From Candidatus Nanopelagicales bacterium (GTDB taxonomy: Bacteria; Actinomycetota; Actinomycetes; JAHEKZ01): a stretch of 64,000 nt of DNA. The translations under genes and the position numbers were made by a program. Of the stretch, positions 16,501 through 52,292 are shown one piece after another; position 1 is the stretch's first letter; each line of letters opens with the position of its first letter. The notes under the pieces were generated by a model. The model made no database searches, was not told the DNA's origin, and saw nothing but the letters and a program-made list of their open reading frames with translations. The stretch is from NCBI GenBank assembly GCA_038316135.1, contig JBBQAL010000002.1, forward strand, positions 1,869 through 65,868. The letters run 5' to 3'.

Positions 16501-18165
<1,665 letters not shown>

Positions 18166-18693: not shown

Positions 18694-18712
18694 CGCCCAA
18701 CCTAGCCAGCGG

Positions 18713-18739
18713 CTAGCACTCCGTCAACCCGAGTGCCAG
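18713..18739. promoter_or_regulatory. CIRCE HrcA operator, copy 2 (CTAGCACTC-N9-GAGTGCCAG)
   Basis: Left arm matches 8 of 9 and right arm 7 of 9 to the CIRCE consensus, with exact N9 spacing. In the groES 5' region. Confidence 0.65.
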
Positions 18740-38696: not shown

Positions 38697-39677
38697 TTGG
38701 CACTCCGGCGCGTCGGACGTGCCCCATACGCCCCTGGCGGAGGTAGTGGGCAGACTGTCGTCGTGTCACACGCCGCGTCAGGTCGCCACCGAAGTCCGGT
38801 GAGAGCGCGGCCTCAGCGACGTTCGCCGCTCTGGGCGGTCCTCGTTGTGGTCCTCGCCGCCGGAGCCGTTGCAGCGGCGATCTTCCTGTGGTCGCGAATC
38901 ACAGCGGTCCCTGACACAGGCACGCCAGGCGAACCACCGTCGTCGCCGGGCAGCACCGGCCCAGCGCCCAGCGAGGCGGCGGGCATCGTCGAGAGCAACC
39001 GGACCGTCACCATTGACCGCGAAACGATCACCGTTGAGGAGGTCTCCACCGCTGTCGACGGTGAAGCGGCGCGAGCTGTTCCAGCCACCCGCACCCCACT
39101 TGGCCTCCAACTGATCAGCTCAGCGGTGATCTCCGCCGATGGGCGCTCGAAACCATTCGATGCGCCGGTCACCATCAGTCGCAGCGGCACCCTGACCGTG
39201 CGAAATAGCTATCGATTGACCGACTGCCCTGACGTGATTCCCACCCAATGGCCGTCTCCTGCCGACTTTCCCGGGGCTTCCAGGAGCTACGTCCGTCTCG
39301 ATGAGCCGCTGCATACCGGCTATGCCCTATGCCCGGACAGCAAGTCCAAGGCCGCCCAGCTTCGTGACCTCGCCGGAGCGGTCATTGCAGGAAATGCCTC
39401 GCGGCTAAGGCTCACCTGGCTCGGCGATCAGACGATTACCATCCGGGCGATTGGTTCGGCCTCGGGCGTGGCAGCAATCGTCGCGAACCCAACATGCGAC
39501 GCGTCTTGTGTCGCCTCGATTCCACCTGGAGGGTCAACGGAGCTTCAGCTAGCCCCCGTCGACCCGTGCCCACCAGCATCGGAGAACAACCGACTCACGC
39601 TCGTGGTACAGATCGCCAGCCGGTCGTCGACCGCAGTCGTCGAGGTCGGCGGGCTCTCTCAGCTGGTCTGCCAGTGA
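38697..39677 (+). CDS. Hypothetical membrane-anchored secreted protein
   Basis: Single TM ([21 protein letters not shown]) followed by a Pro/Ser-rich linker and a Cys-containing extracytoplasmic domain. The exact start is uncertain. Confidence 0.45.
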
Positions 39678-39686
39678 ACCCTTCAG

Positions 39687-40343
39687 TCATGCGGACGCGG
39701 CCGCAATGGCTTTCCCTTCGGCCAAGAACGCCTCAACCGCCCCCTGGTCGTTGAGCTCACCCCAAGTACGAGCAGCACCGAACGGCGCGTTCCAGAATGT
39801 TCCTTCGCGGGGCTTCCAAGGCCCCACGTAGACGTAAGGCGCCTCCTCATATGCGTCGCCGAGTGAGATGCCGTAGTTGACGTCATCAACGGCGATCCCC
39901 ACGTCAAAGTGCTCTGGCCACAGCACCGGCGTTTCTTCTGGAGCAAAGGCACCCAGCGCAGCGGCCCCGCGCTCAAGCCAACCTGCCAGGGCATCCGCAG
40001 CGGCTTGGTCGATCGACAAGCGCGAGTGGGGAGCGGCGTCGGATGAGTCGGGGTATAGGCCCTCGGGGGCACCACCTGCGATCCCGGCTTCGCCGGCGAC
40101 CTCGGCCAACGTGCCCTGCAGGCGAATGCGGCGGCCGTCAGCAGTCACCAACTCGTTGCGGTCGACTCGGATCGAACCGTCTCGGGTGGCAAAACCACCA
40201 GGCACCACCTGCAACCTGATCGTGCCCGAGTCGCGGTGCTGCGGACCAGCCATCAGCCACTCAGCCACCCAGTGCCACGAGCGGCGGGTGTCGGAGACGA
40301 CGGCAAGGCCGTCAGGGGTGTCGAACGGGGACGGAACTGCCAT
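39687..40343 (-). CDS. Hypothetical protein
   Basis: Start taken at MAVPSPFD, with a GGAGG SD upstream. Protein-like composition; no motif recognised. Confidence 0.45.
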   Translation of the reverse strand: MAVPSPFDTPDGLAVVSDTRRSWHWVAEWLMAGPQHRDSGTIRLQVVPGGFATRDGSIRVDRNELVTADGRRIRLQGTLAEVAGEAGIAGGAPEGLYPDSSDAAPHSRLSIDQAAADALAGWLERGAAALGAFAPEETPVLWPEHFDVGIAVDDVNYGISLGDAYEEAPYVYVGPWKPREGTFWNAPFGAARTWGELNDQGAVEAFLAEGKAIAAASA

Positions 40344-40367
40344 TAGGGGGCCTCCATCGAGATTGGC

Positions 40368-40410
40368 GGGCAGCGGGCTTGGTGGGCAGCGGGCTTGGTG
40401 GGCGCGGGAC
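40368..40410. repeat. 16-bp direct repeat GGGCAGCGGGCTTGGT, two perfect copies plus a partial third, in a divergent promoter region
   Basis: Seen directly in the sequence. Lies between the hypothetical gene (minus strand) and the Rieske-GltS gene (plus strand). Confidence 0.7.
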
Positions 40411-40491
40411 ACGTGTAACGGACGGAGCATCCCAGCGCACTGAGATACACAGGCTCTGAATCGATGTGTCCCTCAACCCCGGGAGCGTTAC

Positions 40492-42111
40492 GTGACGAAA
40501 GTTCCGGTCCAATCACTGCCCCTACTTTCCACGCTGCCCGACCGGACGCCGTTCGCTGCCACGGCCGACGGCGTCGACGTCGTCGTTGTACGTAATGGCG
40601 ATCAGATCGGAGTTTACGAGGGGCGGTGCCCTCACCGTGGGGCAATGCTCGCCGACGGCGAGGTCGTTGGGGACGACCTGGTCTGCGGAGTCCACGGATA
40701 TGACTTTCGCCTCGATACCGGGGTCAGCACGTACGACCCCAAGGAGAGCATCCATCGCTTCCGCGCGAGCGTGGATGGGGACAGGGTTTCAATCGATGCC
40801 GATGACCTCGCCCAATTTCTCACCCGCCAGCCCCAGCAGCGCGACGTCGACCCATACTCACGCCTCTTTGCAGACGCACATCAAGCGACTGACGAAGAGC
40901 CGTACGTCGCCGAGATCCACGCGCTTGCCCGCGATGGTCTCGCCAAGACGGGCAGGCACGGGCCCGTAGCGGCGATGGGAGTCCCACGTACTGACCTCCC
41001 CCAGTGGGAGCACCTCCAGGTGCTCACCGCGCAACTCGATCGCCTACCGCTGCTCGATGACGAGCCAGTCGACACCAACACCGTAATTGGGCCGAAAGCG
41101 CAGCAACCATTGAGGCTGGCCATCCCTTTGTTTGTCTCCGACATGAGCTTTGGAGCGTTGTCGCTGGAAGCCAAGACGGCTCTGGCGCGCGGAGCAGAGG
41201 ACGCGGGCACCGCGATCTGTTCGGGCGAAGGTGGCATGTTGCCCGAGGAACAGCAATCCTGCTCGCGCTATCTCCTCGAGGTGGCGTCCGCGCGGTTCGG
41301 CTACCACGACGAGCAGCTCGACCTTGTACAAGCAGTTCATCTGAAGTTGGGGCAAGGAGCCAAGACCGGTACCGGCGGGCACCTTCCCGGACGTAAGGTC
41401 ACTGGCCGAATCGCTGAGGTGCGCGGGCTCCCGGAAGGCACTGCCGCGGTTTCTCCGGCCCGCTTCCCCGAGTGGACCGGCCTCGACGATGCCGCCGCTA
41501 TGGTCAAGCACCTGCGCGAGGGCAGCAAGGGCAAGCCGGTCGGAGTCAAGATGTCGGCCCAGCACATCGAGCGAGACATCGATGCCGCACTCGCCCTGAG
41601 CGTTGACTACATCATTCTCGATGGGCGTGGAGGCGGGACTGGCGCCGCCCCCAAGCTGTTCCGTGACAACATCAGCGTGCCGTCGATGGCGGCAGTTGCT
41701 CGTGCCCGAAGGCACCTAGATCTCTCCGGCGCCACCAATGTCACCCTCGTTGCAACCGGGGGGTTGCGTCGTCCCGCGGACTTCGTCAAAGCAATGGCGC
41801 TCGGTGCTGACGCCGTGGCCGTCTCCAACTCAGCATTACAGTCCATCGGCTGCGTGGGAATGCGGGCGTGTCATACCGATAACTGTCCGGTAGGCATCGC
41901 CACCCAGAAGCCACATCTGAGAGCACGGCTCCCGGTCGACCTCGCAGCCCAGCGGCTCTCACGATTTTTGACCACGAGCGTCGAACTCATGAGCATCCTG
42001 GCGCGCGCTTGCGGACATCGGCGGCTGTCCGACTTCACCCCCGACGACCTCACCGCTTGGCGGCGTGACGTTGCTGATCTCGTCGGTGTCGAGTTTGCAG
42101 GTGTGCGATGA
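40492..42111 (+). CDS. Rieske [2Fe-2S] domain fused to an FMN-dependent glutamate-synthase-domain (GltS central-domain family) oxidoreductase
   Basis: N-terminal Rieske motif CPHRG-x16-CGVHG. C-terminal Glu_synthase TIM barrel (SGEGGMLPEE, GAKTGTGGHLPG, ILDGRGGGTGAAP) and a GCVGMRACHTDNCPVGIATQ Fe-S cysteine cluster. Confidence 0.85.
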   Translation: MTKVPVQSLPLLSTLPDRTPFAATADGVDVVVVRNGDQIGVYEGRCPHRGAMLADGEVVGDDLVCGVHGYDFRLDTGVSTYDPKESIHRFRASVDGDRVSIDADDLAQFLTRQPQQRDVDPYSRLFADAHQATDEEPYVAEIHALARDGLAKTGRHGPVAAMGVPRTDLPQWEHLQVLTAQLDRLPLLDDEPVDTNTVIGPKAQQPLRLAIPLFVSDMSFGALSLEAKTALARGAEDAGTAICSGEGGMLPEEQQSCSRYLLEVASARFGYHDEQLDLVQAVHLKLGQGAKTGTGGHLPGRKVTGRIAEVRGLPEGTAAVSPARFPEWTGLDDAAAMVKHLREGSKGKPVGVKMSAQHIERDIDAALALSVDYIILDGRGGGTGAAPKLFRDNISVPSMAAVARARRHLDLSGATNVTLVATGGLRRPADFVKAMALGADAVAVSNSALQSIGCVGMRACHTDNCPVGIATQKPHLRARLPVDLAAQRLSRFLTTSVELMSILARACGHRRLSDFTPDDLTAWRRDVADLVGVEFAGVR

Positions 42112-44051
42112 CCACCGAAGGCTGGACCTGGCATGAGATCCCGACTGATCAGATCCCCGACGGTGAAGGGCGGGTACGCACTGTCGTTGTTGACGGCCGG
42201 GCCATCGCCGTGTCTCGTTGCCGCGGACTGATTGGTGCGCTCGACAACCGCTGTCCGCATCAGGGCGGGCCGCTCGGAGAGGGTTCCATTGAGAACGGCC
42301 TGCTGCGCTGCCCTTGGCACGGCTACGACTACGACCCGATCACTGGGGAGCCTCCCTCGGGGTTCAGCGATGCCCCGGAGAAGTTCGAGGTCTCCAAGGA
42401 AGGCGACAGCGTCCGGGTGCTGCTACCGCCCCATGACGCGCAGCTAAGGACCGTCAGCGACGTGATCGTCGACACGCTGCTCGCATGGGGCGTGGACACC
42501 GTCTTCGGAATGGTCGGTCACTCCAATCTCGGATTTGCCGACGCCCTGAGGCGGGCAGAAGAACGGGGAGATCTCCGGTACATCGGCATTCGACACGAAG
42601 GAGCTGCCGCCTTTGCCGCCAGTGCATACGGCAAGCTGACTGGACGGCCAGCGGCTTGCCTGGCCATCGCAGGGCCCGGTTCAACGAACTTGCTCACCGG
42701 CCTGTACGACGCCAAGTTGGACCGCTCACCTGTCATCGCCATCAGTGGGCAGGTCCCCTCGTCCTCGCTCGGACGCGGTGCGTTCCAAGACCTCGATCTT
42801 GGCTCGGTCTTTGGCGACGTCGCCATCTCCACCACCCGGATCTCCGCAGGCAGCAACGCGGCTGAACTCACTGCGGTCACCGTCAAGCGTGCTCTGGACG
42901 GACCTGGCGTAGGCCATCTGGTGCTGCCGGACGAGGTGCAGGGGCTGCCAAGCGACGCCGAACCCGCGACGCCGGGTGGTCGCGGTGCACAGGTCGGTCC
43001 GGCTGCCGCCGAGTTGGTAACGACCGCTGGCGAGATGTTGGCAGAAGCTCGGCGACCGGTACTGATCGTTGGAGAAGGCGCTCGGCACGCGGCCACAGAA
43101 GTCACCGAGCTGGCCGAGCGCCTGGGGGCTCCCGTGCTCACCACCTTTCAGGCCAAAGGCTTGGTCCCTGACCAGCACCCGCTCGCCGGCGGCGTCCTCG
43201 GTCGGTCGGGAACGCCCGTGGCCAGTTGGTTGATGAACGAGAGCGACCTGCTTCTCGTCATCGGTGCCTCCTTTGCCCACCACACCGGCATCGCCACCTA
43301 CAAGCCGGTCATTCAGGTCGATCACTCGGCGGCGGCCATTGGCCGTTTCGACCCAGTACAGCTTGGCGTTGTTGGCGACGCAGCCATGACACTGCGCCAG
43401 CTCATCGATCAGCTTGATGTCGATAACTCGGCAGCCAGCAACCAACGCGATGATGTCGCTTCCCGCTGGAAGCTCTGGCGTGCCGAGAAGCACCGACGGG
43501 CCCACGATGACCTCGGGCAAGGAATCCCCGCGGCTGCCGTGTTCGCAGCTCTGAGCGAACACGCCCCCCAGGATGCCGTGATTACCGTCGACGTCGGCAA
43601 CCACGCCTACTCGTTCGGCCGCTACTTCGAGTCGTCGGGACAACCGGTTCTCATGTCCGGCTATCTGGGCTCCATCGGCTTCGGCTATCCAGCCGCGATC
43701 GGTGCCTGGGCCGCAAACCCCCGTCGCCCGATCGTTGCCGTCACCGGAGACGGCGGGTTCGGTCAGTATCTGGCTGAAATGACGACTGCTGTGAAGTATC
43801 GAATCCCCATCAAACACGTGCTGCTCGACAACCGGTCGCTCGGAAAGATCGCCAAAGAGCAGCTGGCAGAGCAACGACCGCTCTGGCAGACGTCGCTGGT
43901 GAACCCCGACTTCGCCGACTACGCCCGTCTCTGTGGTGCGACTGGAATCACCGCAACCGCCACCGGCGAACTGGACGCCGCGATGCGCGAACTCTTCGCA
44001 GCATCCGGGCCGGCGTTACTGCACGTGCACCAAGATGCCGCGCTGGTGTGA
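42108..44051 (+). CDS. Rieske [2Fe-2S] domain fused to a thiamine-diphosphate-dependent enzyme of the pyruvate oxidase/acetolactate synthase (POX/ALS) family
   Basis: N-terminal Rieske motif CPHQG-x16-CPWHG. Three-domain ThDP-enzyme body (VDTVFGMVGHSN; central FAD/ADP-like domain; ThDP motif GDGGFGQ...LLDN). The ATG overlaps the previous stop (ATGA). Confidence 0.85.
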   Translation: MTTEGWTWHEIPTDQIPDGEGRVRTVVVDGRAIAVSRCRGLIGALDNRCPHQGGPLGEGSIENGLLRCPWHGYDYDPITGEPPSGFSDAPEKFEVSKEGDSVRVLLPPHDAQLRTVSDVIVDTLLAWGVDTVFGMVGHSNLGFADALRRAEERGDLRYIGIRHEGAAAFAASAYGKLTGRPAACLAIAGPGSTNLLTGLYDAKLDRSPVIAISGQVPSSSLGRGAFQDLDLGSVFGDVAISTTRISAGSNAAELTAVTVKRALDGPGVGHLVLPDEVQGLPSDAEPATPGGRGAQVGPAAAELVTTAGEMLAEARRPVLIVGEGARHAATEVTELAERLGAPVLTTFQAKGLVPDQHPLAGGVLGRSGTPVASWLMNESDLLLVIGASFAHHTGIATYKPVIQVDHSAAAIGRFDPVQLGVVGDAAMTLRQLIDQLDVDNSAASNQRDDVASRWKLWRAEKHRRAHDDLGQGIPAAAVFAALSEHAPQDAVITVDVGNHAYSFGRYFESSGQPVLMSGYLGSIGFGYPAAIGAWAANPRRPIVAVTGDGGFGQYLAEMTTAVKYRIPIKHVLLDNRSLGKIAKEQLAEQRPLWQTSLVNPDFADYARLCGATGITATATGELDAAMRELFAASGPALLHVHQDAALV

Positions 44052-44131
44052 TCGTGACCCTACTCAGCCTCGAGCGCCCTCACTTGAGAAGTCTCTCGTC
44101 GTCTACGGTTACTGGCGAGAGGGGCTGGCAG

Positions 44132-44749
44132 ATGACCGACGACGACGTCGATGTGCTCGAAGCGCTTCGCAAGGGCGACGAGCAGGCGTTCGCCACGCTC
44201 ATCGACTCCTGGTCGCCATCGATGCTGCGCTATGCCGGCTACTTCGTCCGCAGCCACGCGAGCGCTGAGGACGTGGTGCAGGAGACGTGGCTGGCGGTCC
44301 TCCACGGCCTCGATGGGTTCCGCGGCGACGCCTCGCTACGCAGCTGGACCTTCCGAATCTTGGCCAACATTGCGCGCAAGCGAGGAGGTCGTGACGCGCG
44401 CTCAGTTCCTGTAGGGCTCACCTCCGACGAACCAACCTATGAGGCCGGCCGGTTCCGCGGACTCGGTGACCCGTGGCCCGGTCATTGGCGCACCGACGCT
44501 GCTCCCACACCGTGGCATCCAGAAGAGCGACTGCTCTCCCGTGAGGCTCGTGATGCGGTGTACGCCGCAATGGCCGGGCTACCTGAGCGTCAGCGTGTCG
44601 TCGTCGAGCTTCGCGACGTTCACGGTTTGTCTTCGGCTGAGGTGTGCGATGCGTTGACGATCAGTCCGGAGAACCAGCGAGTGCTTCTTCACCGCGGTCG
44701 AGGCCGCGTCCGCGCAGCTCTGGAGTCGTTCATGGAGGTGCGCCCATGA
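44132..44749 (+). CDS. ECF sigma factor
   Basis: Start at MTDDDVDVLEAL. Region 2 (AEDVVQETWLAVLHGLDGFRGDASLRSWTFRILAN) and a region-4 HTH (QRVVVELRDVHGLSSAEVCDALTISPENQRVLLHRGRGRVR). Confidence 0.8.
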   Translation: MTDDDVDVLEALRKGDEQAFATLIDSWSPSMLRYAGYFVRSHASAEDVVQETWLAVLHGLDGFRGDASLRSWTFRILANIARKRGGRDARSVPVGLTSDEPTYEAGRFRGLGDPWPGHWRTDAAPTPWHPEERLLSREARDAVYAAMAGLPERQRVVVELRDVHGLSSAEVCDALTISPENQRVLLHRGRGRVRAALESFMEVRP

Positions 44750-44985
44750 CTGCAGACCTCGCCTGTCAGGAACTTGTCGAGCTGCTGAGCCACTACCTGG
44801 ACAACCAGTTGTCGCAGCAGGCGGCTGACCACGTTGAACTCCACCTATCAGACTGTCCGGGGTGTCAGACGGCTCTGGAACACCTCCGCACCAGCGTTGC
44901 ACTTACCCGGTCAACGCAAGTGGCGTCCCTAGCGCCGGACGTGCGTCAGCGACTGCTCACCGAGTTTCGACGAATCACTGGCTAA
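44746..44985 (+). CDS. Small zinc-binding (ZAS-type) anti-sigma factor
   Basis: 79 aa with the HxxxCxxC motif (HLSDCPGCQ). The ATG overlaps the sigma-gene stop (ATGA). Start at MTADLACQEL. Confidence 0.7.
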   Translation: MTADLACQELVELLSHYLDNQLSQQAADHVELHLSDCPGCQTALEHLRTSVALTRSTQVASLAPDVRQRLLTEFRRITG

Positions 44986-45955
44986 GGGGTTGCCACATGG
45001 AGAGAGCAAATCGGCCCGCCTGATCGGTCCACCACCCGAGCGGGCCGAAGCCGATCGTGGCCATCTCCGCTGACAAGGACTCACGTCGGAACTTTGCCGA
45101 GATCTCGGTGCGCATCTCCTCGTCATCGACGAAGTCGACAGTCAGGTCGATGGCGGCCACCCGCACTGTCATGGCCCGCAGAGCGCGAAGGCGCATCTCA
45201 ATCCATTCAAACTCATCGTCCCAGATGACGACATGCTCGAACCCTTCCGCGTCGAAATCGGCGCCCAGCTCCCGGTTGACCACAGACAACACGTTCCGGT
45301 TAAAGGCAGCGGTGACCCCGGCGGAGTCGTCGTAAGCGGGTATGAGCACCTCGGGTGCTTTGACCAGGTCGGTTCCCAGAAGCAGCGTGTCGCTTGGCTG
45401 CATCACCGAATGAAGGGCTTGCAGAAATCGCGCCCGGTAGTCCGGCTCGAAGTTGCCGATCGTGCCACCGAGGAAAGCGATGAGTCGCGAGCTACTGGCA
45501 GGAATCTCGGCGAGGTGACGATCGAAGTCGGCGACCAAGCCACGAACTGCCAGGCCCGGATAAGCTTCAGCAAGGACGGGACCCGCGGCCAGCAGGGCGC
45601 TCTCACTGACGTCGAGAGCAACGTACTGACGCAATGTGCCGGTTTTGACGAGCGCGTCGAGAAGCCAACGCGTCTTGGTCGAGGAGCCTGAGCCAAGCTC
45701 GACCAGACTCTCCGCACCAGCGCAACCGACGATCTCAGCGACATGGTGCTTAAGAATCTCAGCTTCCGCACGGGTGGGGTAGTACTCGGGAAGGCGGGTG
45801 ATCTCCTCGAAGAGCTCACTGCCGGCCTTGTCGTAGAACCACTTGGGCGGCAGCCATTTCGGCGAGGCTGTCAGCCCTCGGCGCACGTCCGCGCGGAGGG
45901 CCGTACCGAGGAACTCCTCGGGCAAATGATGATCGATCTGGAAGTCGTACATCAA
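44975..45955 (-). CDS. egtD: L-histidine N-alpha-methyltransferase (ergothioneine biosynthesis)
   Basis: 326 aa. N-terminus YDFQIDHHLPEEFLGTALRADVRRGLTASPKWLPPKWFYD and SAM site ELGSGSSTKT. Position after egtC. Confidence 0.9.
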   Translation of the reverse strand: MMYDFQIDHHLPEEFLGTALRADVRRGLTASPKWLPPKWFYDKAGSELFEEITRLPEYYPTRAEAEILKHHVAEIVGCAGAESLVELGSGSSTKTRWLLDALVKTGTLRQYVALDVSESALLAAGPVLAEAYPGLAVRGLVADFDRHLAEIPASSSRLIAFLGGTIGNFEPDYRARFLQALHSVMQPSDTLLLGTDLVKAPEVLIPAYDDSAGVTAAFNRNVLSVVNRELGADFDAEGFEHVVIWDDEFEWIEMRLRALRAMTVRVAAIDLTVDFVDDEEMRTEISAKFRRESLSAEMATIGFGPLGWWTDQAGRFALSMWQPLSQ

Positions 45956-46701
45956 GGGGCCACCCTCTCCAACGGTTGAACCTCAATGCTCGAACTGGTC
46001 GCCACGACGACACTGTCGTCTGGCACTTGCTGCCAGCCTCCGCTGGTGTCCGCGGGCTCCGATGCCACCGTCACCCCGCTGTCGTCCTGGTAGGTGAACA
46101 GGGTGTCGCCGGCCGATGTTGCGACGATCTGCTCACCGTCGTGCAGCAACATGTTGTACCGACCGGGCGAGCATCGCTGCGCACGGACGGCCACCTTTGC
46201 CAGTGCTCGGAGTGCGGTGATCCCGTTCTCCAGCTCTCGCTGTACCAACAACCAGAGGAGAGCCGAATCTGTACGTGCGACTAGGCGCAGAAGTTCAGCT
46301 TGCGGGACGTCAGCAACCAGCTCCGCTACGTCCGTTGGCCACCGATCGATGCGACCGTTGTGGCTGAAGAGCCGTTCGCCGTCGCTGAAGGGAGCTGCCG
46401 ACTCAACTCCCGAAGCCGTTCCTGGGGTGGCCGAGCGGACCGCGGCCAGAACGGCCTCGGAGGAAACAGTGCCCGTCAGTTCAGGCAAGTTTGGGTCGCC
46501 CCAGAGTGGGATACCACGTCGATAGCGCTGGGGGCGCTTGGAGTCACCGGTCCACCAGCCGATCCCGAAGCCGTCGGCGTTGACCGTGCCGTACTTTTGG
46601 AACCGCGGCTGCCAGGCTTGTCGTTGTAGACCGAACTCCGGCTCAAGAATGAGGTCAGACAACGTCCGGGGACGCCCGATGTAGGCAAAGTGGCGGCACA
46701 T
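45952..46701 (-). CDS. egtC: Ergothioneine biosynthesis amidohydrolase (class-II glutamine amidotransferase fold)
   Basis: Start at MCRHFAYIGRP, with Cys2 as the N-terminal nucleophile. About 249 aa. Between egtB and egtD. Confidence 0.85.
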   Translation of the reverse strand: MCRHFAYIGRPRTLSDLILEPEFGLQRQAWQPRFQKYGTVNADGFGIGWWTGDSKRPQRYRRGIPLWGDPNLPELTGTVSSEAVLAAVRSATPGTASGVESAAPFSDGERLFSHNGRIDRWPTDVAELVADVPQAELLRLVARTDSALLWLLVQRELENGITALRALAKVAVRAQRCSPGRYNMLLHDGEQIVATSAGDTLFTYQDDSGVTVASEPADTSGGWQQVPDDSVVVATSSSIEVQPLERVAP

Positions 46702-46705
46702 CGCG

Positions 46706-48013
46706 CTACTCCCCTGCGTCCTGCGCACAGCGGAAGCCGCTGAAGATCTGCCTGCGGATCGGCAAGTCCCAGTTGCGGAACGTACCGCGGATGGCGACCG
46801 GGTCGACCGACCACGCCCCCCCGCGCAGCACTCGATGGGAGCGGCCAAAGAAGACTTCGGAGTACTCCCGGTACGGCCAGGCAGCAAAGCCCGGATACGG
46901 CGCGAAGGTGCTCGCCGTCCACTCCCAGACATCGCCAATCATCTGGTGAACTCCGTAGGCCGATGCTCCTTGGGGGTAGGCGCCAATCGGTGCTGGCTGA
47001 AGATATCGCTGCCCGAAATTGCCGTGCGCGACCGAAGGGTCGTCGTCACCCCATGGGTAACGGCGAGAGCGCCCCGAGACCGGGTCGTGGCGCGCAGCCT
47101 TCTCCCACTCCAGCTCGGTTGGCAGCCGTTTCCCCGCCCATCGGGCGTACGCGTCGGCCTCGAACCAGCTGACGTGCTGCACCGGCTCGCGGGCGGGCAA
47201 CGTCTCGTGCACCCCGAATCGGAGCCTGCTCCAGGATGCGCCTTCACGCTCCCAGAAGAGAGGGGCAACAAGCGCGGCCTCCTGCCGATGCCGCCACCCG
47301 TCCGGAGACCACCAGCGGGGGTCGTCGTATCCACCGGCTGTGACGAACTGCAGGTACTGCTCGTTGGTGACTGGGAAGGTATCGATCCAGAAGGCCGGCA
47401 AGTGAACCTCATGTGCTGGCCGTTCGTTGTCGAGCGCCCATGGCTCGGTGGACGTCCCCATCGTGAAGGCACCCCCCGGGATGAACCGTTCCGCGGGAAC
47501 GGTCTTCAGATCAAGGACGGCTTCTGGCGGCGCCGCTGCCCAGAGCAGACCGGGCCCCCGGCGCAGCTGGTGTGTTGCCAGCATCGTCTCGTCGTGCTGT
47601 GCCTCGTGCTGAGCGATCATGCCGAAAGCGAAGCCATCGTTGACGATCGGGCGTCCCTCCAGGGGCGTGTCGTCAAGGACGTCGAGGACTTTGGCCCGCA
47701 CTTCCGCTACGTAGGAGCGCGACTCCTGCGGCGAAAGCAGCGGCAACGCCGGACGCTCGGCCCGTGGATGTTGAAAAGCGTCGTAGAGCTCGTCGACGGC
47801 CGGGTCCATGACCGGGTCGCGGCCACCCACATCACGTACCAGCCAGAGCTCTTCCTGATTGCCGATGTGAGCCAGATCCCACACCAGCGGGGACATGATC
47901 GGTGAGTGCTGGCGCGTGAGATCGATGTCATCAACAACGTCGGTGAGCAAGTCGGTACGTGCCCTCGTCCGCTGCAGTGTTCGCGCGATCGATTCCTTGG
48001 ACGTCGACGTCAC
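46706..48013 (-). CDS. egtB: Hercynine oxygenase / sulfoxide synthase (DinB_2 plus FGE-sulfatase domains)
   Basis: 435 aa. DinB-like N-terminus with HxxxE and an FGE-like C-terminus (RGGAW, GFRC). Confidence 0.9.
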   Translation of the reverse strand: MTSTSKESIARTLQRTRARTDLLTDVVDDIDLTRQHSPIMSPLVWDLAHIGNQEELWLVRDVGGRDPVMDPAVDELYDAFQHPRAERPALPLLSPQESRSYVAEVRAKVLDVLDDTPLEGRPIVNDGFAFGMIAQHEAQHDETMLATHQLRRGPGLLWAAAPPEAVLDLKTVPAERFIPGGAFTMGTSTEPWALDNERPAHEVHLPAFWIDTFPVTNEQYLQFVTAGGYDDPRWWSPDGWRHRQEAALVAPLFWEREGASWSRLRFGVHETLPAREPVQHVSWFEADAYARWAGKRLPTELEWEKAARHDPVSGRSRRYPWGDDDPSVAHGNFGQRYLQPAPIGAYPQGASAYGVHQMIGDVWEWTASTFAPYPGFAAWPYREYSEVFFGRSHRVLRGGAWSVDPVAIRGTFRNWDLPIRRQIFSGFRCAQDAGE

Positions 48014-49419
48014 GGACGCACCCCAACCGGAACAGGGACTGGCGCATCAATAGCAGGGTGTGGTGGCGGAGTGACGCCTGGTCCAACTGCGCGCAAGTCG
48101 TCAGCCGGGCATCGGGCGGCGCTGGTGTAGTCATCGGAAAACCTCGCCAGGCGGTCAACGATCCATGGTGGCGCCGAGGATCGGTCCAGTGACTCAGTCG
48201 CCAGAGCGAGAAGTCCGGTCGCAGCGGACGCGATGGCGCGGTCGGCAAGGCCAAGGCGCGCAGCGTCCGACCAGCGACCCTCAGTCGGCTCAGTGAGCTC
48301 GAGCGCGCGATCACCGATGTCAGTGTCTTCAGCCAAGGCGTAGAGGACGGCAAGGGGAAGGGCCCAACCGTCTCCGCGCTGTGCATCCAGGTATCGAACT
48401 TCGACCGCGCCCCGCGGTCGCACCGGAGGGAACAGGGTCGTGAGGTGGTACCGAAGGTCAATCGGAGTCGGCGGGCGCAATCCCAGGGAATCAAAGCCGG
48501 AGATCCACTCGGAGAAGGTGAATCTTCGGGCGACCGACCACGAATCTTGCTCATCGTGGCTCGACCTGGGCAGCATCATCACCGGGGCTGCGAGCGCATA
48601 ACGGATGTAGGAGTCGGCGGCTTCCGGCGCCGGGTGCCGCGTCGGGACAGGCGAGGTGCGGGCAGGGTCCAGCGACAGCCAAACCCCTTGACGAGCGCTG
48701 ACCCAGCCAGTATCCCGACCCTCAACGAACGGTGAGTTTGCGAAAGCGGCGACCAGCGCCGGCCCAACGGCGTGCAACAACCGCCACCGACGCTGAATAT
48801 CCGCGGCGGCCCCGGATTCAAGGGTGATTTGCAGCGAAGCCGTTGCTCGCATCATCATCCGCCCGCTGGGACCGTATTGGTCGAGGTACGACTCCATGGC
48901 TCGGTACCGGGGGTGGTCGGTTCGGCGCGGCGGTAGGTAGACCGGATCGGTCCCTTCACCGAGCAGCTTCACGCCGGCCTTTGAACTCCTTCGCCGCAAC
49001 TCCTCCAGGTCGGCCGCGACGGCGGTCAAGGCGTCCACCAGCCCGCTGCAGACCCGCGAGGAAATCTCCAGCTGCCCACCGGGTTCCTCGGTGACCTGTC
49101 CCCCAGACCGCAACTCGCGTCGGTCCAGGGCATCAAGGCCATCGCGGGCAAGTGGGGCACCCATAGCGTCCCGGGTGAGGAACTCGACCTCGACGCCGAC
49201 CCGGCCAGGTACGGCGGTCGTGAAGGCAGTCGACATGAGCAAGTTCTCTGCGTCAGCCAGGGTCAGGCGTGCCGGGTCAGAAGAATGCGCCACAGCGACC
49301 TCCTCCCCGCGTGTCAGTAGTGGTCCACTCCGGCACAGCACAGAACTGCCCCTGGTCTGATCTGTGTCGGCAGCCCGAGCCACCGTTACACCCTTGCCCG
49401 ATTCTCGCCTACCGTCCAC
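48010..49419 (-). CDS. egtA: Glutamate--cysteine ligase, GCS2 family (ergothioneine pathway)
   Basis: GVEVEF motif and GCS2-like body. Overlaps egtB by 4 bp. First gene of the egtABCD block. Confidence 0.8.
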   Translation of the reverse strand: MDGRRESGKGVTVARAADTDQTRGSSVLCRSGPLLTRGEEVAVAHSSDPARLTLADAENLLMSTAFTTAVPGRVGVEVEFLTRDAMGAPLARDGLDALDRRELRSGGQVTEEPGGQLEISSRVCSGLVDALTAVAADLEELRRRSSKAGVKLLGEGTDPVYLPPRRTDHPRYRAMESYLDQYGPSGRMMMRATASLQITLESGAAADIQRRWRLLHAVGPALVAAFANSPFVEGRDTGWVSARQGVWLSLDPARTSPVPTRHPAPEAADSYIRYALAAPVMMLPRSSHDEQDSWSVARRFTFSEWISGFDSLGLRPPTPIDLRYHLTTLFPPVRPRGAVEVRYLDAQRGDGWALPLAVLYALAEDTDIGDRALELTEPTEGRWSDAARLGLADRAIASAATGLLALATESLDRSSAPPWIVDRLARFSDDYTSAARCPADDLRAVGPGVTPPPHPAIDAPVPVPVGVRP

Positions 49420-49467: not shown

Positions 49468-50961
49468 TCAGACCGCGGCCATCACCAGCAGGCCGCCGGC
49501 GGCAGTCACGGCACCCGCTGTGACAACGGGGAGCCAGCGGAGCGCTCGCAACGCGGAGGGCCGCTGGCCTCGCTCTGCCCAGGTGAAGAGCCGCTCTTGG
49601 CCGCGGAGCACGGCGAAACCAACCCCGGCCAGAGTGAGTGCCATTCCTGCGCCGAACGCCAGGACGAGCAGGACGCCGAACCAGGCACGCCCGGCGGCGA
49701 CCGCCGCGAGCAGGACGACCACCGCTGAAGGGCTGGGGAGCAAGCCACCGGTGACCCCGAGCGCAACGAGGATGCCGCGCCTTGGCCGACGTTCATCCAC
49801 CCGCTCCGTTTCAACGTCCTGCGCGAGGGGCCGAACCAGCGTGTTTGTCGCCACCGCATCCCGGCCGTGGTCATGCAAGGGCCCGTGGTCATGCGAATGC
49901 CCGTGGTCATGCGAATGCCCGTGACCCGCTCCGCGGACCGCGTTACGCAGCAGCACGAGACCCATGACCAGGACAACGGCTCCGGTGATGACTCCAAGCA
50001 GCGGGTACACAGCAGCGGGAGCTGCCGTGGCCGTTCCGGCGACCACAAGGCCGAGGACCAGGACACTGGCCGTATGGGTGGCGGTCACCGTGATCCCAAC
50101 GGTCAGCGCGGCGCGACCGGCCCGCTCACGCCGCCCGGCCAGAGCGAACGCCACAAGTGACTTGCCGTGTCCTGGTGCCAGTGCATGAGTGGCCCCGACA
50201 ACAAGTGCCACCAAGAGCGCCAGTGTTATGCCGATAGGGCCTGTCGCCGTCGACGACACCGAGCCCAGCAAGGCGGCACCCCAGCCCCATGGCGTGCTGG
50301 TACTCGTCGAGGTCGCCGTCTGCGCAGGTGCCGCCAGCGACGGTCCACCGGGCTCAAGTTGAGCAGAGGCCGTATTGACGTGCAGGGGGTTCGTCTGTTG
50401 CGACTCCGGGTACTCGGTTAGTACTCCCGACACACTCTGGGTCGGGACGTTGGTATCGGTCACGGTGACGCCATCTCCCTGCAGGGTCACCTCGCGCCAT
50501 CCGACCTCCGTTGGTGCGGTGTCGTCGGAGAAAGTGAGTGAGCCACCCGCCGCGACCGCAACGACTCCACGCAGGTTGCACTCAAGTCGCATGGTGTTCA
50601 GGCCAGCCTGTCCAGCCGCCAGTGACGCTGAGGACCCCTCGGACCGCAACACCACCGAACGATCGCCAACCGACATCTGAAGGTCGCGAGCAGCTTCGTC
50701 ACACTGGGCCAGAGCAAAACGGCTCAGCTCGCCAGCCGAGGCTGACTCATCGCCATTGACGTCGAGCTCCGCCATGGCCTGTACGGTGGGAATCTCCGCA
50801 AGGTCGACCACGTGCACGACCTGGACCTGGTCTGTCGAGACAACGATCCCGTTGTAATGGTTGACCGAGAAATTCCCGAGCGGGTGCGCCGATGCGGCGC
50901 CCGGAGCGGCCAACAAACCGACGATGGCGAGCGCAGCAACGGCAAGCACGCGACGGATCAT
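49468..50961 (-). CDS. COG2215/RcnA-like metal (Ni/Co-type) transporter-family membrane protein with an N-terminal secreted domain and a His-rich loop
   Basis: Signal peptide (...AAPGAASA|HPLGNF), a roughly 230-aa extracytoplasmic domain, then TM helices carrying the HALAPGHGKSL motif and a GHGHSHDHGHSHDHGPLHDHG loop. The ATG overlaps the TPR-gene stop (ATGA). Confidence 0.65.
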   Translation of the reverse strand: MIRRVLAVAALAIVGLLAAPGAASAHPLGNFSVNHYNGIVVSTDQVQVVHVVDLAEIPTVQAMAELDVNGDESASAGELSRFALAQCDEAARDLQMSVGDRSVVLRSEGSSASLAAGQAGLNTMRLECNLRGVVAVAAGGSLTFSDDTAPTEVGWREVTLQGDGVTVTDTNVPTQSVSGVLTEYPESQQTNPLHVNTASAQLEPGGPSLAAPAQTATSTSTSTPWGWGAALLGSVSSTATGPIGITLALLVALVVGATHALAPGHGKSLVAFALAGRRERAGRAALTVGITVTATHTASVLVLGLVVAGTATAAPAAVYPLLGVITGAVVLVMGLVLLRNAVRGAGHGHSHDHGHSHDHGPLHDHGRDAVATNTLVRPLAQDVETERVDERRPRRGILVALGVTGGLLPSPSAVVVLLAAVAAGRAWFGVLLVLAFGAGMALTLAGVGFAVLRGQERLFTWAERGQRPSALRALRWLPVVTAGAVTAAGGLLVMAAV

Positions 50962-52292
50962 GAGCTCGCCTCCAGCTCGGCGAGAAGTTCCTGCAGCTGT
51001 TCGGACTGCCACGGTGCGTACCCTCTGTCGCTGCGCAATGCAGCCTGCAGATGGGTCCGTGCGGCGCCCTGCATCCCGAGTGCGAGTTCGATGGCACCTC
51101 GGTGCTGCAGCGATCGGGCGTCACCGCCGTAAACCGTCGCCAGACGGGCATATCGCAGCGCCTCGGTGTCCCGACCATTGACATGTAGGGCCCAAGCCAG
51201 GGCGTCAGCGACCAGCGGTGAGTGACGACGCCCCCATTCAGCCTCGGCATTGCGCAGGGCAATAGTGGCGTCGCCGTGGTCTGCCTCGAACCACGCGAGC
51301 TCGAGATCTGGGCGGATGCCAGACGCCCTGGCTAGGCGGGCAGACGCACGCACAACGGCGTACTGCTGCTGCGCGGCCCCGCGATCACCGGAGATCTCAT
51401 AGAGCTCGCCGAGCGCGATCAGGTGCTCAAGCAGCGGCACCCTGGTCACCACCTCGCGCAAGATGCTGATCGCACGGTCGACGTGACCACGCAGGGCAAG
51501 CACGCGCGCGCGGCCGGCGAGTGCATTCGGGTCAGTGGGCACCACCTGCAACGCCGCCCGGTAATGCGCGTCAGCAGCGCCGAGGTCTCCGGCGCGGCGA
51601 GCTATCTCTCCAAGGTGGTAGTTGACGAAGGCACGTGCATTAGGGTCCGTTGCGCTGGTGAGCGCAGAGGAGAAGTAGCGGCGAGCGTCTGTTTCGTTCC
51701 CGCGAAGCTCAGACTGGTAGGCCAGACGCGTCGTTGCAGCAAGTCCTGGTTGCAGTCGGTCGAAGGTGCGGGCGGCCCGTAGCGCGGCAGGAAGCTTTCC
51801 GAGCTCGGTCAGTGCGTCGACTCGGACGCCGAGCGCCGGGCGCGAGTACGGATTGAGGCGCAGCGCTCGGTCTGCTTGGGCAAGCGCCGCCGTGAAGCGA
51901 TGTTCGGCCGAGAGCAGCGCGGCCTGGGCAGCCTGGGCGAGGTCGTTGGCGCGCGGCATCTCTTCAAGTGATCGAGTGGCAGCCTGCTTCGACGCGGCGT
52001 ACGCCGCTGGGTCTGCCGTCACGCGCCCTTGTTCGATGAGGAGCAGTGCAAGGACCCCCCAGCTATGTGCGTCAGCCGGCTGTGCGTCAAGGTGCTGCCG
52101 CAGCGACTCGATCTGTCCAGCGAGGTCCGCGCTCGACGTGAAGACGGCCGCGTCGGCGTTGGCGTTGGCTGAGGGATCGGTGGGGGGCGACTGCGCACCG
52201 CTCAGTCGCGGAGGCAGCAGCGCAGCGGCAACGGTGAGGGCTCCTGCAATCACCAGCGCCGCTGCAGCTTTGGCCGGTCGTGAGGGTGTCAC
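50958..52292 (-). CDS. Secreted tetratricopeptide-repeat protein
   Basis: N-terminal signal/TM (AAALVIAGALTVAAALL) followed by multiple TPR-like Ala/Leu/Arg repeats (e.g. YFSSALTSATDPNARAFVNYHLGEIARRAGD). Confidence 0.7.
   Translation of the reverse strand: MTPSRPAKAAAALVIAGALTVAAALLPPRLSGAQSPPTDPSANANADAAVFTSSADLAGQIESLRQHLDAQPADAHSWGVLALLLIEQGRVTADPAAYAASKQAATRSLEEMPRANDLAQAAQAALLSAEHRFTAALAQADRALRLNPYSRPALGVRVDALTELGKLPAALRAARTFDRLQPGLAATTRLAYQSELRGNETDARRYFSSALTSATDPNARAFVNYHLGEIARRAGDLGAADAHYRAALQVVPTDPNALAGRARVLALRGHVDRAISILREVVTRVPLLEHLIALGELYEISGDRGAAQQQYAVVRASARLARASGIRPDLELAWFEADHGDATIALRNAEAEWGRRHSPLVADALAWALHVNGRDTEALRYARLATVYGGDARSLQHRGAIELALGMQGAARTHLQAALRSDRGYAPWQSEQLQELLAELEASS

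Follow-up and report, generated by a model that had tools for sequence, protein, structure and literature searches.

Two adjacent genes in a 64,000-nt window of DNA from a Candidatus Nanopelagicales bacterium each encode a Rieske [2Fe-2S] domain together with a different catalytic body, which raises the question of what the two products do together and what controls their expression. The preliminary description of this locus had proposed fusions to a glutamate-synthase-type FMN domain in one protein (A) and to a ThDP enzyme of the pyruvate-oxidase/acetolactate-synthase family in the other (B), with an N-terminal CxH-x16-CxxH Rieske module in both, and Pfam searches bore out both architectures (Table 1). 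Residues 13-83 of A matched Rieske PF00355 (E 1.9e-12) and residues 173-508 matched Glu_synthase PF01645 (E 6e-92), and in B the Rieske match PF00355 (residues 12-81, E 9e-13) was accompanied by TPP_enzyme_N (8.5e-38), TPP_enzyme_M (8.2e-36) and TPP_enzyme_C (2.9e-33). The ligands were found in both proteins, as C46-P-H48...C65-G-V-H68 in A (retained in 77-80 of 81 A homologues) and as C49-P-H51...C68-P-W-H71 in B (retained in 45-48 of about 49 full-length B homologues). The top PDB and NCBIfam matches of A residues 10-104 were oxygenase-type Rieske ferredoxins, such as T4moC (1VM9) and the carbazole dioxygenase ferredoxin (3GCE), and NirD, which have the same ligand pattern. The oxygenase ferredoxins are free shuttles between reductase and oxygenase, whereas here the Rieske domain and a catalytic body are joined in cis.

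Table 1 Positions of the genes and promoter-like motifs discussed in the text.
Feature	Position in window	Strand	Description	Source
Gene C	39687-40343	-	218-aa DUF5996-like protein, divergent from A	
Motif copy 1	40414-40442	+	ECF-type promoter-like motif TGTAACG-N16-GCACTG, towards gene A	
Motif copy 2	40464-40491	-	GTAACGCTCC-N..-GACACA, towards gene C	
Gene A	40492-42111	+	539 aa, Rieske [2Fe-2S] + glutamate-synthase-type FMN/[3Fe-4S] domain	Pfam
Gene B	42108-44051	+	647 aa, Rieske [2Fe-2S] + ThDP enzyme, pyruvate oxidase/PoxB/AHAS family	Pfam
ECF sigma factor	44132-44749	+	205 aa, Sigma70_r2 + r4_2	Pfam
Soluble ZAS-type anti-sigma	44746-44985	+	79 aa, Cys7, H27-x3-C31-x2-C34; zf-HC2, E 2.1e-8	Pfam
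egtD	44975-45955	-	Methyltransf_33	Pfam
egtC	45952-46701	-	GATase_4	Pfam
egtB	46706-48013	-	FGE-sulfatase+DinB_2	Pfam
egtA	48010-49293	-	GCS2	Pfam
Motif copy 3	49364-49390	-	TGTAACG-N16-ACAC, ~70 nt upstream of egtA start codon	

The catalytic body of A resembles the large subunit of glutamate synthase (GltB; Fd-GltS 1LLW/1OFD, Azospirillum 1EA0, B. subtilis 7MFM), with which it shares PF01645 and the C-x5-C-x4-C motif of the [3Fe-4S] cluster. The cluster triad C454/C460/C465 was invariant among 81 sequences, as were E246, Q288, K291, R311, H297 and T294. Alignment to 1LLW showed that the Fd-GltS residues holding 2-oxoglutarate around the FMN site (E903, Q969, K972 and R992) are kept in A, and the full set of GltS residues binding both 2-oxoglutarate carboxylates is present. 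However, A does not have the glutamine amidotransferase, central and GXGXG beta-helix domains of GltB, no GltD partner is located nearby, and it scored 135 bits against the GltB model, for which the cut-off is 1047. Besides the N-terminal Rieske domain, it has a conserved stretch specific to its family (residues 122-176, about 60 in length), and GltS Q978 and E975 are replaced by an invariant His and an invariant Thr, respectively. No amidotransferase partner for A was found, and this, together with the invariant His and Thr, suggests that the substrate may not be 2-oxoglutarate plus ammonia.

By sequence comparison, the closest relatives of B are POX/PoxB. The top PDB match was E. coli PoxB (3EYA, E 1e-67, covering PoxB residues 3-525), and the top NCBIfam match was pyruvate oxidase PRK08611, for which B scored 389 bits against a cut-off of 742, so B is not a pyruvate oxidase equivalog. 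Like E. coli PoxB (pyruvate dehydrogenase [ubiquinone]) and Lactobacillus pyruvate oxidase, B has three domains of the ThDP family. The catalytic Glu (E164) and the GDG...N ThDP-Mg motif (G547-D-G and N575) are present and conserved, and B is a ThDP enzyme that probably also contains FAD. It differs from PoxB in the N-terminal Rieske domain, in a conserved Lys (K580) at the position of PoxB F465, and in the absence of the C-terminal membrane- and lipid-binding segment, since PoxB is aligned only as far as residue 525.

The A-B pair is uncharacterised yet conserved across many bacterial phyla. The two genes overlap by ATGA (42108-42111), as had been described, and B lies directly after A in 52 of the 84 loci compared, in Actinomycetota, Cyanobacteria, Alpha- and Gammaproteobacteria, Gemmatimonadota, Acidobacteriota and others, with the start of B less than 100 nt from the stop of A in 38 of 48 same-strand loci. 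The A family is very tight, at about 60% identity over at least eight phyla. The earlier impression that the architecture has no characterised counterpart was upheld: no curated family covers it, no NCBIfam model for A or B reached its cut-off, the PDB held separate domains only and no solved full-length structure, and a literature search found no paper describing it. By contrast, the pair does not form the self-contained unit that had been suggested. A occurs without B in 32 of the 84 loci, including L082, in which A is 85% identical to that of the window, so A is not dependent on B, and further conserved partners were observed, namely a DUF5996-like protein (gene C in the window, for which no close solved fold was found), a Na+/H+ exchanger and a membrane ferric-reductase-Rieske protein. 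Of the 84 loci, 31 have the exchanger gene beside the module, where it precedes A in Proteobacteria and follows B in Actinomycetota. In the ferric-reductase protein, the Rieske domain is by far nearer to that of B (35-48% identity, E 1e-12 to 1e-19) than to that of A; this protein accompanies A without B in seven loci, and all three are present in eight.

We propose, with a probability of roughly 0.35, that the locus encodes a stress-controlled redox module in which B would oxidise a 2-oxo acid and pass electrons from Rieske domain to Rieske domain to A, which would reduce a 2-oxoglutarate-derived imine, with expression under thiol or oxidative stress alongside ergothioneine synthesis. The regulatory part of this proposal draws on sequence, and the enzymology on conserved residues and thermodynamics. 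B, of the pyruvate-oxidase type, would have lost the membrane-binding tail of PoxB and gained a Rieske domain as electron outlet, and would catalyse the oxidative decarboxylation of a pyruvate-like 2-oxo acid. The electrons would move one by one to the Rieske domain of A and then via the [3Fe-4S] cluster to FMN, which would reduce the imine that ammonia forms with a 2-oxoglutarate-like acid. A Rieske ferredoxin (about -150 mV) can be reduced by the oxidation of 2-oxo acids, for which E0' is below -500 mV, and can itself drive 2-oxoglutarate/glutamate reduction (about -140 mV), and electrons cannot feasibly run backwards into a ThDP enzyme; thus, if A and B exchange electrons, the direction is from B to A. 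In loci without B, the membrane ferric-reductase-Rieske protein, with its Rieske domain of the same type, would be the likely partner of A. The scheme recalls the chain of pyruvate:ferredoxin oxidoreductase, ferredoxin and Fd-GltS, in which electrons from a 2-oxo acid likewise reach an FMN/[3Fe-4S] site via an iron-sulfur carrier, but it would use a POX-type ThDP enzyme, one Rieske [2Fe-2S] domain built into each enzyme in place of a free ferredoxin, and no glutaminase domain. If true, A-B would be a counterpart of that chain that tolerates oxygen and does not depend on NAD(P)H. Several observations run against the proposal: PoxB F465, the presumed ThDP-to-FAD electron relay, is the conserved Lys in B; A is found without B in over a third of the loci, L082 among them; the invariant His and Thr and the missing amidotransferase partner have been noted above; it assigns no function to the exchanger or the DUF5996-like protein; and the AF2 model of A is poor (pLDDT 72.7).

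An unlikely, though not negligible, alternative is that A and B are independent dehydrogenases, A oxidising an amino acid (glutamate or a similar one) to give ammonia and the 2-oxo acid and B oxidising a 2-oxo acid, possibly the product of A, with both Rieske domains feeding a common acceptor, e.g. a dihaem membrane protein of the ferric-reductase type, from which electrons would go on to quinone or an external acceptor. The occurrence of the ferric-reductase-Rieske protein with A both in the absence and in the presence of B would fit such an acceptor, the exchanger in its two arrangements could handle released ions or ammonia (as Na+/H+ or NH4+/H+ exchange), the same kind of add-on domain on A and B is as expected for two donors with one acceptor, and PoxB itself is a dehydrogenase supplying the quinone pool. 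Nevertheless, neither the window nor its relatives have a ferric-reductase-Rieske gene or other acceptor close to the module, and the tight coupling between A and B in translation fits a stoichiometric complex better than two unrelated donors. Moreover, the potential of a Rieske ferredoxin is close to that of the glutamate/2-oxoglutarate couple, so that glutamate oxidation would be poorly driven.

The preliminary description had also linked the module to an ECF sigma/ZAS anti-sigma pair, and such a pair is located near the module in 20 of 84 loci, all actinobacterial except possibly a few. The sigma factor exceeded the TIGR02937 cut-off (89 against 42.9 bits, NCBIfam), and its corrected start, ATG 44132, lies 80 nt after B; the corrected anti-sigma start, ATG 44746, creates a second ATGA overlap, with the sigma gene. 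The pair resembles SigR-RsrA and SigH-RshA in a sigma factor with regions 2 and 4 only, a small soluble anti-sigma with C...HxxxCxxC, and translational coupling. It differs in that the anti-sigma, which aligns to RsiW, scored 32 bits against the RsrA model TIGR03988 (cut-off 62.5), the sigma gene is at the end of its target operon and not at the head, and the predicted promoter is TGTAACG-N16-CAC, whereas SigR/SigH promoters are of the type GGAAT-N18-GTT. No sigma-70-type promoter-like sites or terminators were found between 39600 and 45200, so none lies between A and the sigma gene.

Conserved ahead of A is a motif, TGTAACG-N16-(G/A)CAC, whose copies face each other between C and A, the -35 box of the copy pointing towards C overlapping the RBS and start codon of A. 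The motif with its fixed 16-nt spacer is kept in the window, L003-5, L010-13, L017-18 and L082-84; the gap between the two -35 boxes ranges from 64 to 78 bp among loci. Four matches were observed in the window against 0.76 expected, and 35 in the 84 loci with the spacer fixed at 16 nt, of which, after exclusion of L001 (a duplicate of the window), 26 lie between C and A or precede either egtA or a displaced B gene (a single copy, in L011). The -35 box reported for M. tuberculosis SigD promoters is GTAACGct (PMC13537577), and that of Brucella BcrS is TGTAAC (PMC8315932). In the proposed module, the ZAS anti-sigma would bind the sigma factor until a thiol or oxidative signal frees it; the freed factor would then fire the promoter of A-B-sigma-antisigma, giving positive autoregulation, as well as those of divergent gene C and of egtABCD. 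The sigma-to-promoter assignment is correlative, and a PWM scan found no motif copy belonging to the sigma gene itself; both points count against the proposal.

The ergothioneine genes had been placed 1 nt after the sigma pair, which was a misreading: egtD is convergent, its stop (44975-44977) lying within the anti-sigma gene with an 11-nt 3' overlap, so it is the end of the egt operon that abuts the pair. The link to the module lies in the shared motif upstream of egtA rather than in adjacency. Equivalent egtA-upstream sites occur in L082 (17025-) and L083 (18735-), i.e. in three of three close relatives including the window, and with a PWM trained without egtA sites, those of L083 and the window ranked first and second of all out-of-training positions (1.6 Mb, 84 loci). 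The module and the ergothioneine genes appear to share a stress sigma-factor promoter in this lineage. Could the module then belong to ergothioneine (thiohistidine) metabolism, as a PLP-independent EgtE substitute or in redox recycling of oxidised ergothioneine? As a substitute, A would oxidatively deaminate the amino-acid end of hercynylcysteine sulfoxide, B would decarboxylate the resulting 2-oxo acid and eliminate the sulfenate, like the leaving groups of Xsc and phosphoketolase, and two electrons would return via the Rieske-Rieske link to reduce the sulfenate, a redox-neutral scheme that would account for the Rieske domains on both enzymes. In favour of such a role, egt genes are neighbours of the module in three phyla that are unrelated to one another. 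In Actinomycetota this is seen in the window, L082 and L083; in Gemmatimonadota (L046), egtB-egtD run divergently from A-B-DUF5996; and in Acidobacteriota (L057), a single strand carries egtD-egtB-A-B, with a 43-nt gap. None of these five clusters, that of the window included, has egtE beside it. We nonetheless consider this improbable: egt genes lie within 10 kb of the module in only 5 of 84 loci, the carboxylate-binding residues of A suit glutamate better than hercynylcysteine sulfoxide, L082 has A, sigma and egt but no B, and a common oxidative-stress regulon explains the co-regulation equally well.

Least probable of all is that the GTAACG...CGTTAC pair ahead of A forms an RNA leader helix hiding the RBS of A, or a dimeric-repressor site, with the sigma factor unrelated to A and B, because, although the two boxes are mutually reverse-complementary, the right-hand box covers the RBS and start codon of A, and L018 shows a U-G-compatible change, Rfam gave no match in 40300-40560, the distance between the boxes varies while each keeps exactly 16 nt to its CAC element, both boxes are degenerate in L002 with complementarity not retained, and unpaired copies with the same spacing stand upstream of egtA in three genomes and of the displaced B in L011.

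The region was found to contain four tightly packed genes in one orientation, which encode a Rieske protein fused to a glutamate-synthase-type FMN/[3Fe-4S] domain (gene A), a Rieske protein fused to a ThDP enzyme of the POX/PoxB type (gene B), an ECF sigma factor and a ZAS anti-sigma factor. Gene C, which encodes a DUF5996-like protein, is divergent from A, and ergothioneine biosynthesis genes (egt) are located on the opposite strand. The genes and domains named in the preliminary description were confirmed: Pfam domains were identified in A, B, sigma and anti-sigma, the ATGA overlap was seen, and both architectures that it proposed to scan for, PF00355 with PF01645 and PF00355 with PF02776/PF00205/PF02775, were recovered. 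The egt cluster had been described as starting right after the sigma pair; instead, the 3' end of egtD converges on the anti-sigma gene and overlaps it, with the egtD stop 11 nt inside.

Positions of genes, promoter-like motifs and other features in the window
Feature	Position	Strand	Details
Gene C	39687-40343	divergent from A	218 aa
17-nt direct tandem duplication	40367-40400		GGCAGCGGGCTTGGTGG x2
Promoter-like motif toward A	40414-40442	+	
Promoter-like motif toward C	40491-40464	-	
Gene A	40492-42111	+	539 aa; GTG start, GGGAG ribosome-binding site 5' of start
Segment of A, residues 122-176	about 40855-41019		
Gene B	42108-44051	+	647 aa; start shares ATGA with stop of A
ECF sigma gene	44132-44749	+	205 aa; ATG start; 80-nt gap after B
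zf-HC2 anti-sigma gene	44746-44985	+	79 aa; ATGA overlap with sigma gene
egtD, egtC, egtB, egtA		opposite strand	converging on anti-sigma gene; Pfam
egtA start codon	49293		GTG; ribosome-binding site GGGGAGGAGG
Promoter-like motif upstream of egtA	49390-49364	-	within 175-nt intergenic region
ORF with His-rich repeat	49468-51012	-	no Pfam match
Fourth motif match	49946-49921	-	inside the ORF with His-rich repeat

In A, the Rieske domain PF00355 (residues 13-83, E 1.9e-12) and the glutamate-synthase FMN domain PF01645 (residues 173-508, E 6e-92) were the only Pfam matches, and the class II glutamine amidotransferase, central and C-terminal GXGXG (beta-helix) domains are absent. A shares PF01645 and the [3Fe-4S] cysteine triad with GltB/GlsF, but scores only 135 bits against the GltB equivalog cut-off of 1047 (NCBIfam). 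Comparison of 81 sequences (A and 80 homologues) showed that C454, C460 and C465, which align to the GltS [3Fe-4S] cysteines, are invariant, as are E246, Q288, K291 and R311, which occupy the positions of Fd-GltS E903, Q969, K972 and R992, residues that surround FMN and hold 2-oxoglutarate in GltS structures. The same loop departs from GltS at two positions that are invariant in the A family: H297 replaces Q978, one of the 2-oxoglutarate site residues, and T294 replaces E975. About 60 residues between the two domains (122-176), almost wholly outside the Pfam match that begins at residue 173, contain many invariant residues (Y122, D128, H130, E136-P137, G157, A161-M-G-V164, R166, W172 and Q176). 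AF2 confidence was low in this segment; the AF2 model of A, built from 36 sequences, had a pLDDT of 72.7 with disordered cofactor loops, and no claim made here rests on it.

In B, a Rieske domain (residues 12-81, E 9e-13) is followed by PF02776, PF00205 and PF02775, the three ThDP-family domains (E 1e-33 to 1e-38, Pfam). The best PDB match was PoxB (3EYA, E 1e-67), and the three domains, the catalytic Glu and the GDG-x(24-27)-N(N) motif of pyruvate oxidase and PoxB are all present, with E164, G547-D-G and N575 conserved in the B family. No curated equivalog cut-off in NCBIfam was reached, however: the closest match, the pyruvate oxidase model PRK08611, gave 389 bits against 742, and the PoxB model PRK09124 gave 303 bits against 792. 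The alignment stops at PoxB residue 525 of 572, which indicates that the C-terminal membrane-binding helix of PoxB is missing in B. K580, a Lys conserved in 44 of 48 sequences, aligns with PoxB F465, an aromatic residue that probably passes electrons from ThDP to FAD. FAD-containing relatives outranked FAD-free ones among the NCBIfam matches, a hint that B may bind a redox-active FAD in its central domain. Both A and B carry a low-potential-type Rieske pattern (CxH-x16-CxxH) whose predicted [2Fe-2S] ligands are kept across both families.

All parts fall into known superfamilies, namely the GltS synthase domain, POX/PoxB ThDP enzymes, Rieske ferredoxins and ECF/ZAS pairs, and by curated definitions neither A nor B is a member of a characterised family. 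The literature searched contained no description of either fused architecture, of the A-B pairing, of DUF5996 or of an ECF sigma factor controlling egt genes, and the text of the ECF reclassification paper mentions none of these genes; the view that the architecture is not a characterised system therefore stands. The only annotations in the A family are 'glutamate synthase-related' and 'Rieske domain-containing', and those of B relatives are 'thiamine pyrophosphate-binding protein' and 'pyruvate oxidase'. The A family is very large and very tight, with more than 8000 database matches and 58-73% identity between Actinomycetota, Alpha- and Gammaproteobacteria, Cyanobacteria, Gemmatimonadota, Acidobacteriota, Nitrospinota and others. 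An exhaustive representative search with A residues 1-200 gave mostly gene fragments, with only 35 clusters (50% identity) at E<=1e-30, which shows that the family is compact, and revealed no new architectures. Both catalytic bodies belong to textbook families; their Rieske-fused forms and the pairing of these are widespread and extremely conserved.

Neighbours of A were counted in 84 loci, the window and 83 fetched loci, and the counts are lower bounds, several contigs being truncated. B was observed in 52 loci, a DUF5996-like protein in 36, a Na+/H+ exchanger (PF00999) in 31, the ECF sigma factor of the module in 20, a membrane protein with Ferric_reduct and Rieske domains in 15, and egtD in 5. 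These counts put A at the centre of the module and make B its most frequent, but not an obligatory, partner, and other partners recur. In 38 of the 48 loci with A and B on one strand, the start of B falls within 100 nt of the A stop. The arrangement is exactly that of the window in L083, a related actinobacterial locus with an A 81% identical to ours, and in L082 (10001-12586; A 85% identical) C is divergent from A-sigma-antisigma, followed by egtDCBA, with no B gene at the locus. The exchanger gene takes two positions relative to the module, in two phyla, after B in L003-L018 and before A in L029, L039, L040 and L048-L063, and is absent from the window. The membrane protein combines a ferric-reductase-type dihaem domain (PF01794) with a C-terminal Rieske domain, for example at L033 11957-13006 and also in L025, L041, L042, L065, L069 and L072. 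This Rieske domain (CRHQGGPLGEG...CPWHG) is much closer to that of B than to that of A, which suggests that B and the membrane protein offer A the same kind of Rieske domain.

The domains, ligand and active-site conservation, gene coupling, synteny and motif described here were observed directly, and the mechanism built on them is proposed. B would carry out oxidative decarboxylation of a 2-oxo acid, with its Rieske domain as an electron outlet in place of the PoxB membrane anchor. Electrons would enter A through its own Rieske domain, pass to the [3Fe-4S] cluster and, at FMN, reduce the imine formed from a 2-oxoglutarate-like acid; because of thermodynamics, they could run only from B to A. 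Overall, A and B would amount to an analogue of the PFOR-ferredoxin-GOGAT chain that spares NAD(P)H and tolerates oxygen. We give this relay as a whole a probability of about 0.35; if true, it would couple 2-oxo-acid oxidation and reductive amination in a new, oxygen-tolerant way that needs no pyridine nucleotides. That A and B are instead parallel dehydrogenases supplying a common acceptor appears unlikely; loci with A and no B would suit this alternative, and the close spacing of the two genes would suit the relay.

Genes for ergothioneine biosynthesis adjoin the module in three related actinobacterial contigs (the window, L082 and L083) and in two further phyla. The pair egtB-egtD is divergent from A-B-DUF5996 in a Gemmatimonadales MAG (L046, 685-7596), and in a Holophagae MAG (L057, 6253-14348) the genes GST, egtD, egtB, A, B and TANGO2 follow one another on one strand, with the Xi-type GST upstream and the TANGO2-family gene downstream. 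Three independent lineages of roughly 60 with egt genes beside the module are more than we would expect by chance for a two-gene pathway, and their occurrence in three phyla suggests that the antioxidant ergothioneine and the module are connected. A second alternative is that the module serves ergothioneine chemistry itself, for example as a substitute for EgtE; no egtE was found beside any of the five module-adjoining egt clusters, and egt-adjoining loci are a minority of the 84, as counted in locus neighbourhoods rather than whole genomes. We regard this alternative as improbable.

The sigma factor contains regions 2 and 4 only (PF04542 and PF08281) and passes the TIGR02937 cut-off (89 bits against 42.9). 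The anti-sigma factor contains Cys7 and H27-x3-C31-x2-C34, that is, HxxxCxxC with an N-terminal Cys, has no membrane segment, and remains below the cut-off for RsrA of the SigR/RsrA mycothiol system (TIGR03988, 32.2 bits against 62.5). In actinobacterial loci, the motif TGTAACG(C)-N16-(G/A)CAC(T)G is present twice in the C-A intergenic region, with one copy per strand, face-to-face. The spacer between -35 and -10 boxes is 16 nt long in every case and unconserved in sequence, and the distance between copies is 64 to 78 bp. A third copy was found upstream of egtA, which starts ~60 nt past it; L082 (about 17000-17025, -) and L083 (about 18710-18735, -) also have the motif upstream of egtA, with boxes conserved and spacers diverged. 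The window has 4 exact matches to the pattern where 0.76 are expected, and 0 of 100 shuffles reached 4; the fourth match, inside an ORF for a His-rich membrane protein, was set aside as chance. When a weight matrix trained on 21 C-A sites only was used to scan both strands of 1.6 Mb, the top two matches outside the training set were the egtA sites of L083 (24.0 bits) and the window (23.9 bits).

A GTAACGct -35 box has been reported for M. tuberculosis SigD promoters (PMC13537577) and a TGTAAC box for Brucella BcrS (PMC8315932), and the motif is therefore of a known ECF type. This likeness raised SigD as the identity of the sigma factor, which was rejected, since the anti-sigma factor is a small soluble ZAS protein and the PDB SigD fragments were unmatched. 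No sigma-70-like promoter, terminator or extra motif was detected between A and the sigma gene (scan of 39600-45200 and weight matrix), so that the simplest view places sigma and anti-sigma at the 3' end of the A-B transcript. B has its own motif copy in L011, where an insertion splits it from A. We infer that transcription of C, A-B-sigma-antisigma and egtABCD is driven by an ECF sigma factor, very probably the adjacent one; the motif upstream of egtA thus predicts the same factor for ergothioneine biosynthesis and, whatever the enzymology, provides a directly testable candidate regulator in Actinomycetota. Within the relay reading, inactivation of the ZAS anti-sigma factor would induce the module along with the antioxidant thiol. 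That the motif is an RNA or repressor site unconnected to sigma is very improbable, the RNA-helix reading of the A leader being unlikely given the behaviour of the box spacing and the lack of any Rfam family in 40300-40560.

Judged from sequence, the module is real, widespread, strongly conserved and uncharacterised, with a proposed function and a concrete regulatory prediction. We tentatively propose that A-B is a redox system of an undescribed kind, made of two enzymes, whose fused Rieske domains would connect the ThDP/flavin 2-oxo-acid enzyme directly with the FMN/[3Fe-4S] enzyme, and that a dedicated ECF sigma factor controls it together with egtABCD. It may be an amino-acid (glutamate) synthase that is driven by 2-oxo acids, needs no NAD(P)H and is induced by oxidative stress, or it may perform PLP-independent last steps of ergothioneine synthesis in the many egtE-less producers; in either version, if true, ergothioneine biosynthesis would gain its first assigned sigma factor. 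The Na+/H+ exchanger, gene C, the His and Thr of A and the Lys of B are explained by none of the four readings.

Gene C had no direct Pfam match at E<=0.01, and its profile matched a DUF5996 protein (PF19459 family) with 97.6% probability (E 3.4e-12, 128 columns); its conserved core is WPEHFD...PYxYVGPW, and it brings to the module a confident fold without a close solved relative. The tandem duplication in its leader makes the C-A intergenic region of the window longer than in relatives. Each face-to-face -35 box adjoins the start codon of the other gene, an unusual layout kept in at least 12 actinobacterial loci, and the predicted A and C transcripts, with starts expected near 40449 (+) and 40457 (-), would overlap by ~10 nt at their 5' ends; for egtA the expected start is near 49357 (-). 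The ORF that contains the fourth motif match encodes a His-rich repeat (GHSHDHGHSHDHGPLHDHG, which stems from a repeated DNA unit) followed by hydrophobic segments, and its predicted product looks like a metal (Ni/Co-type) transporter.
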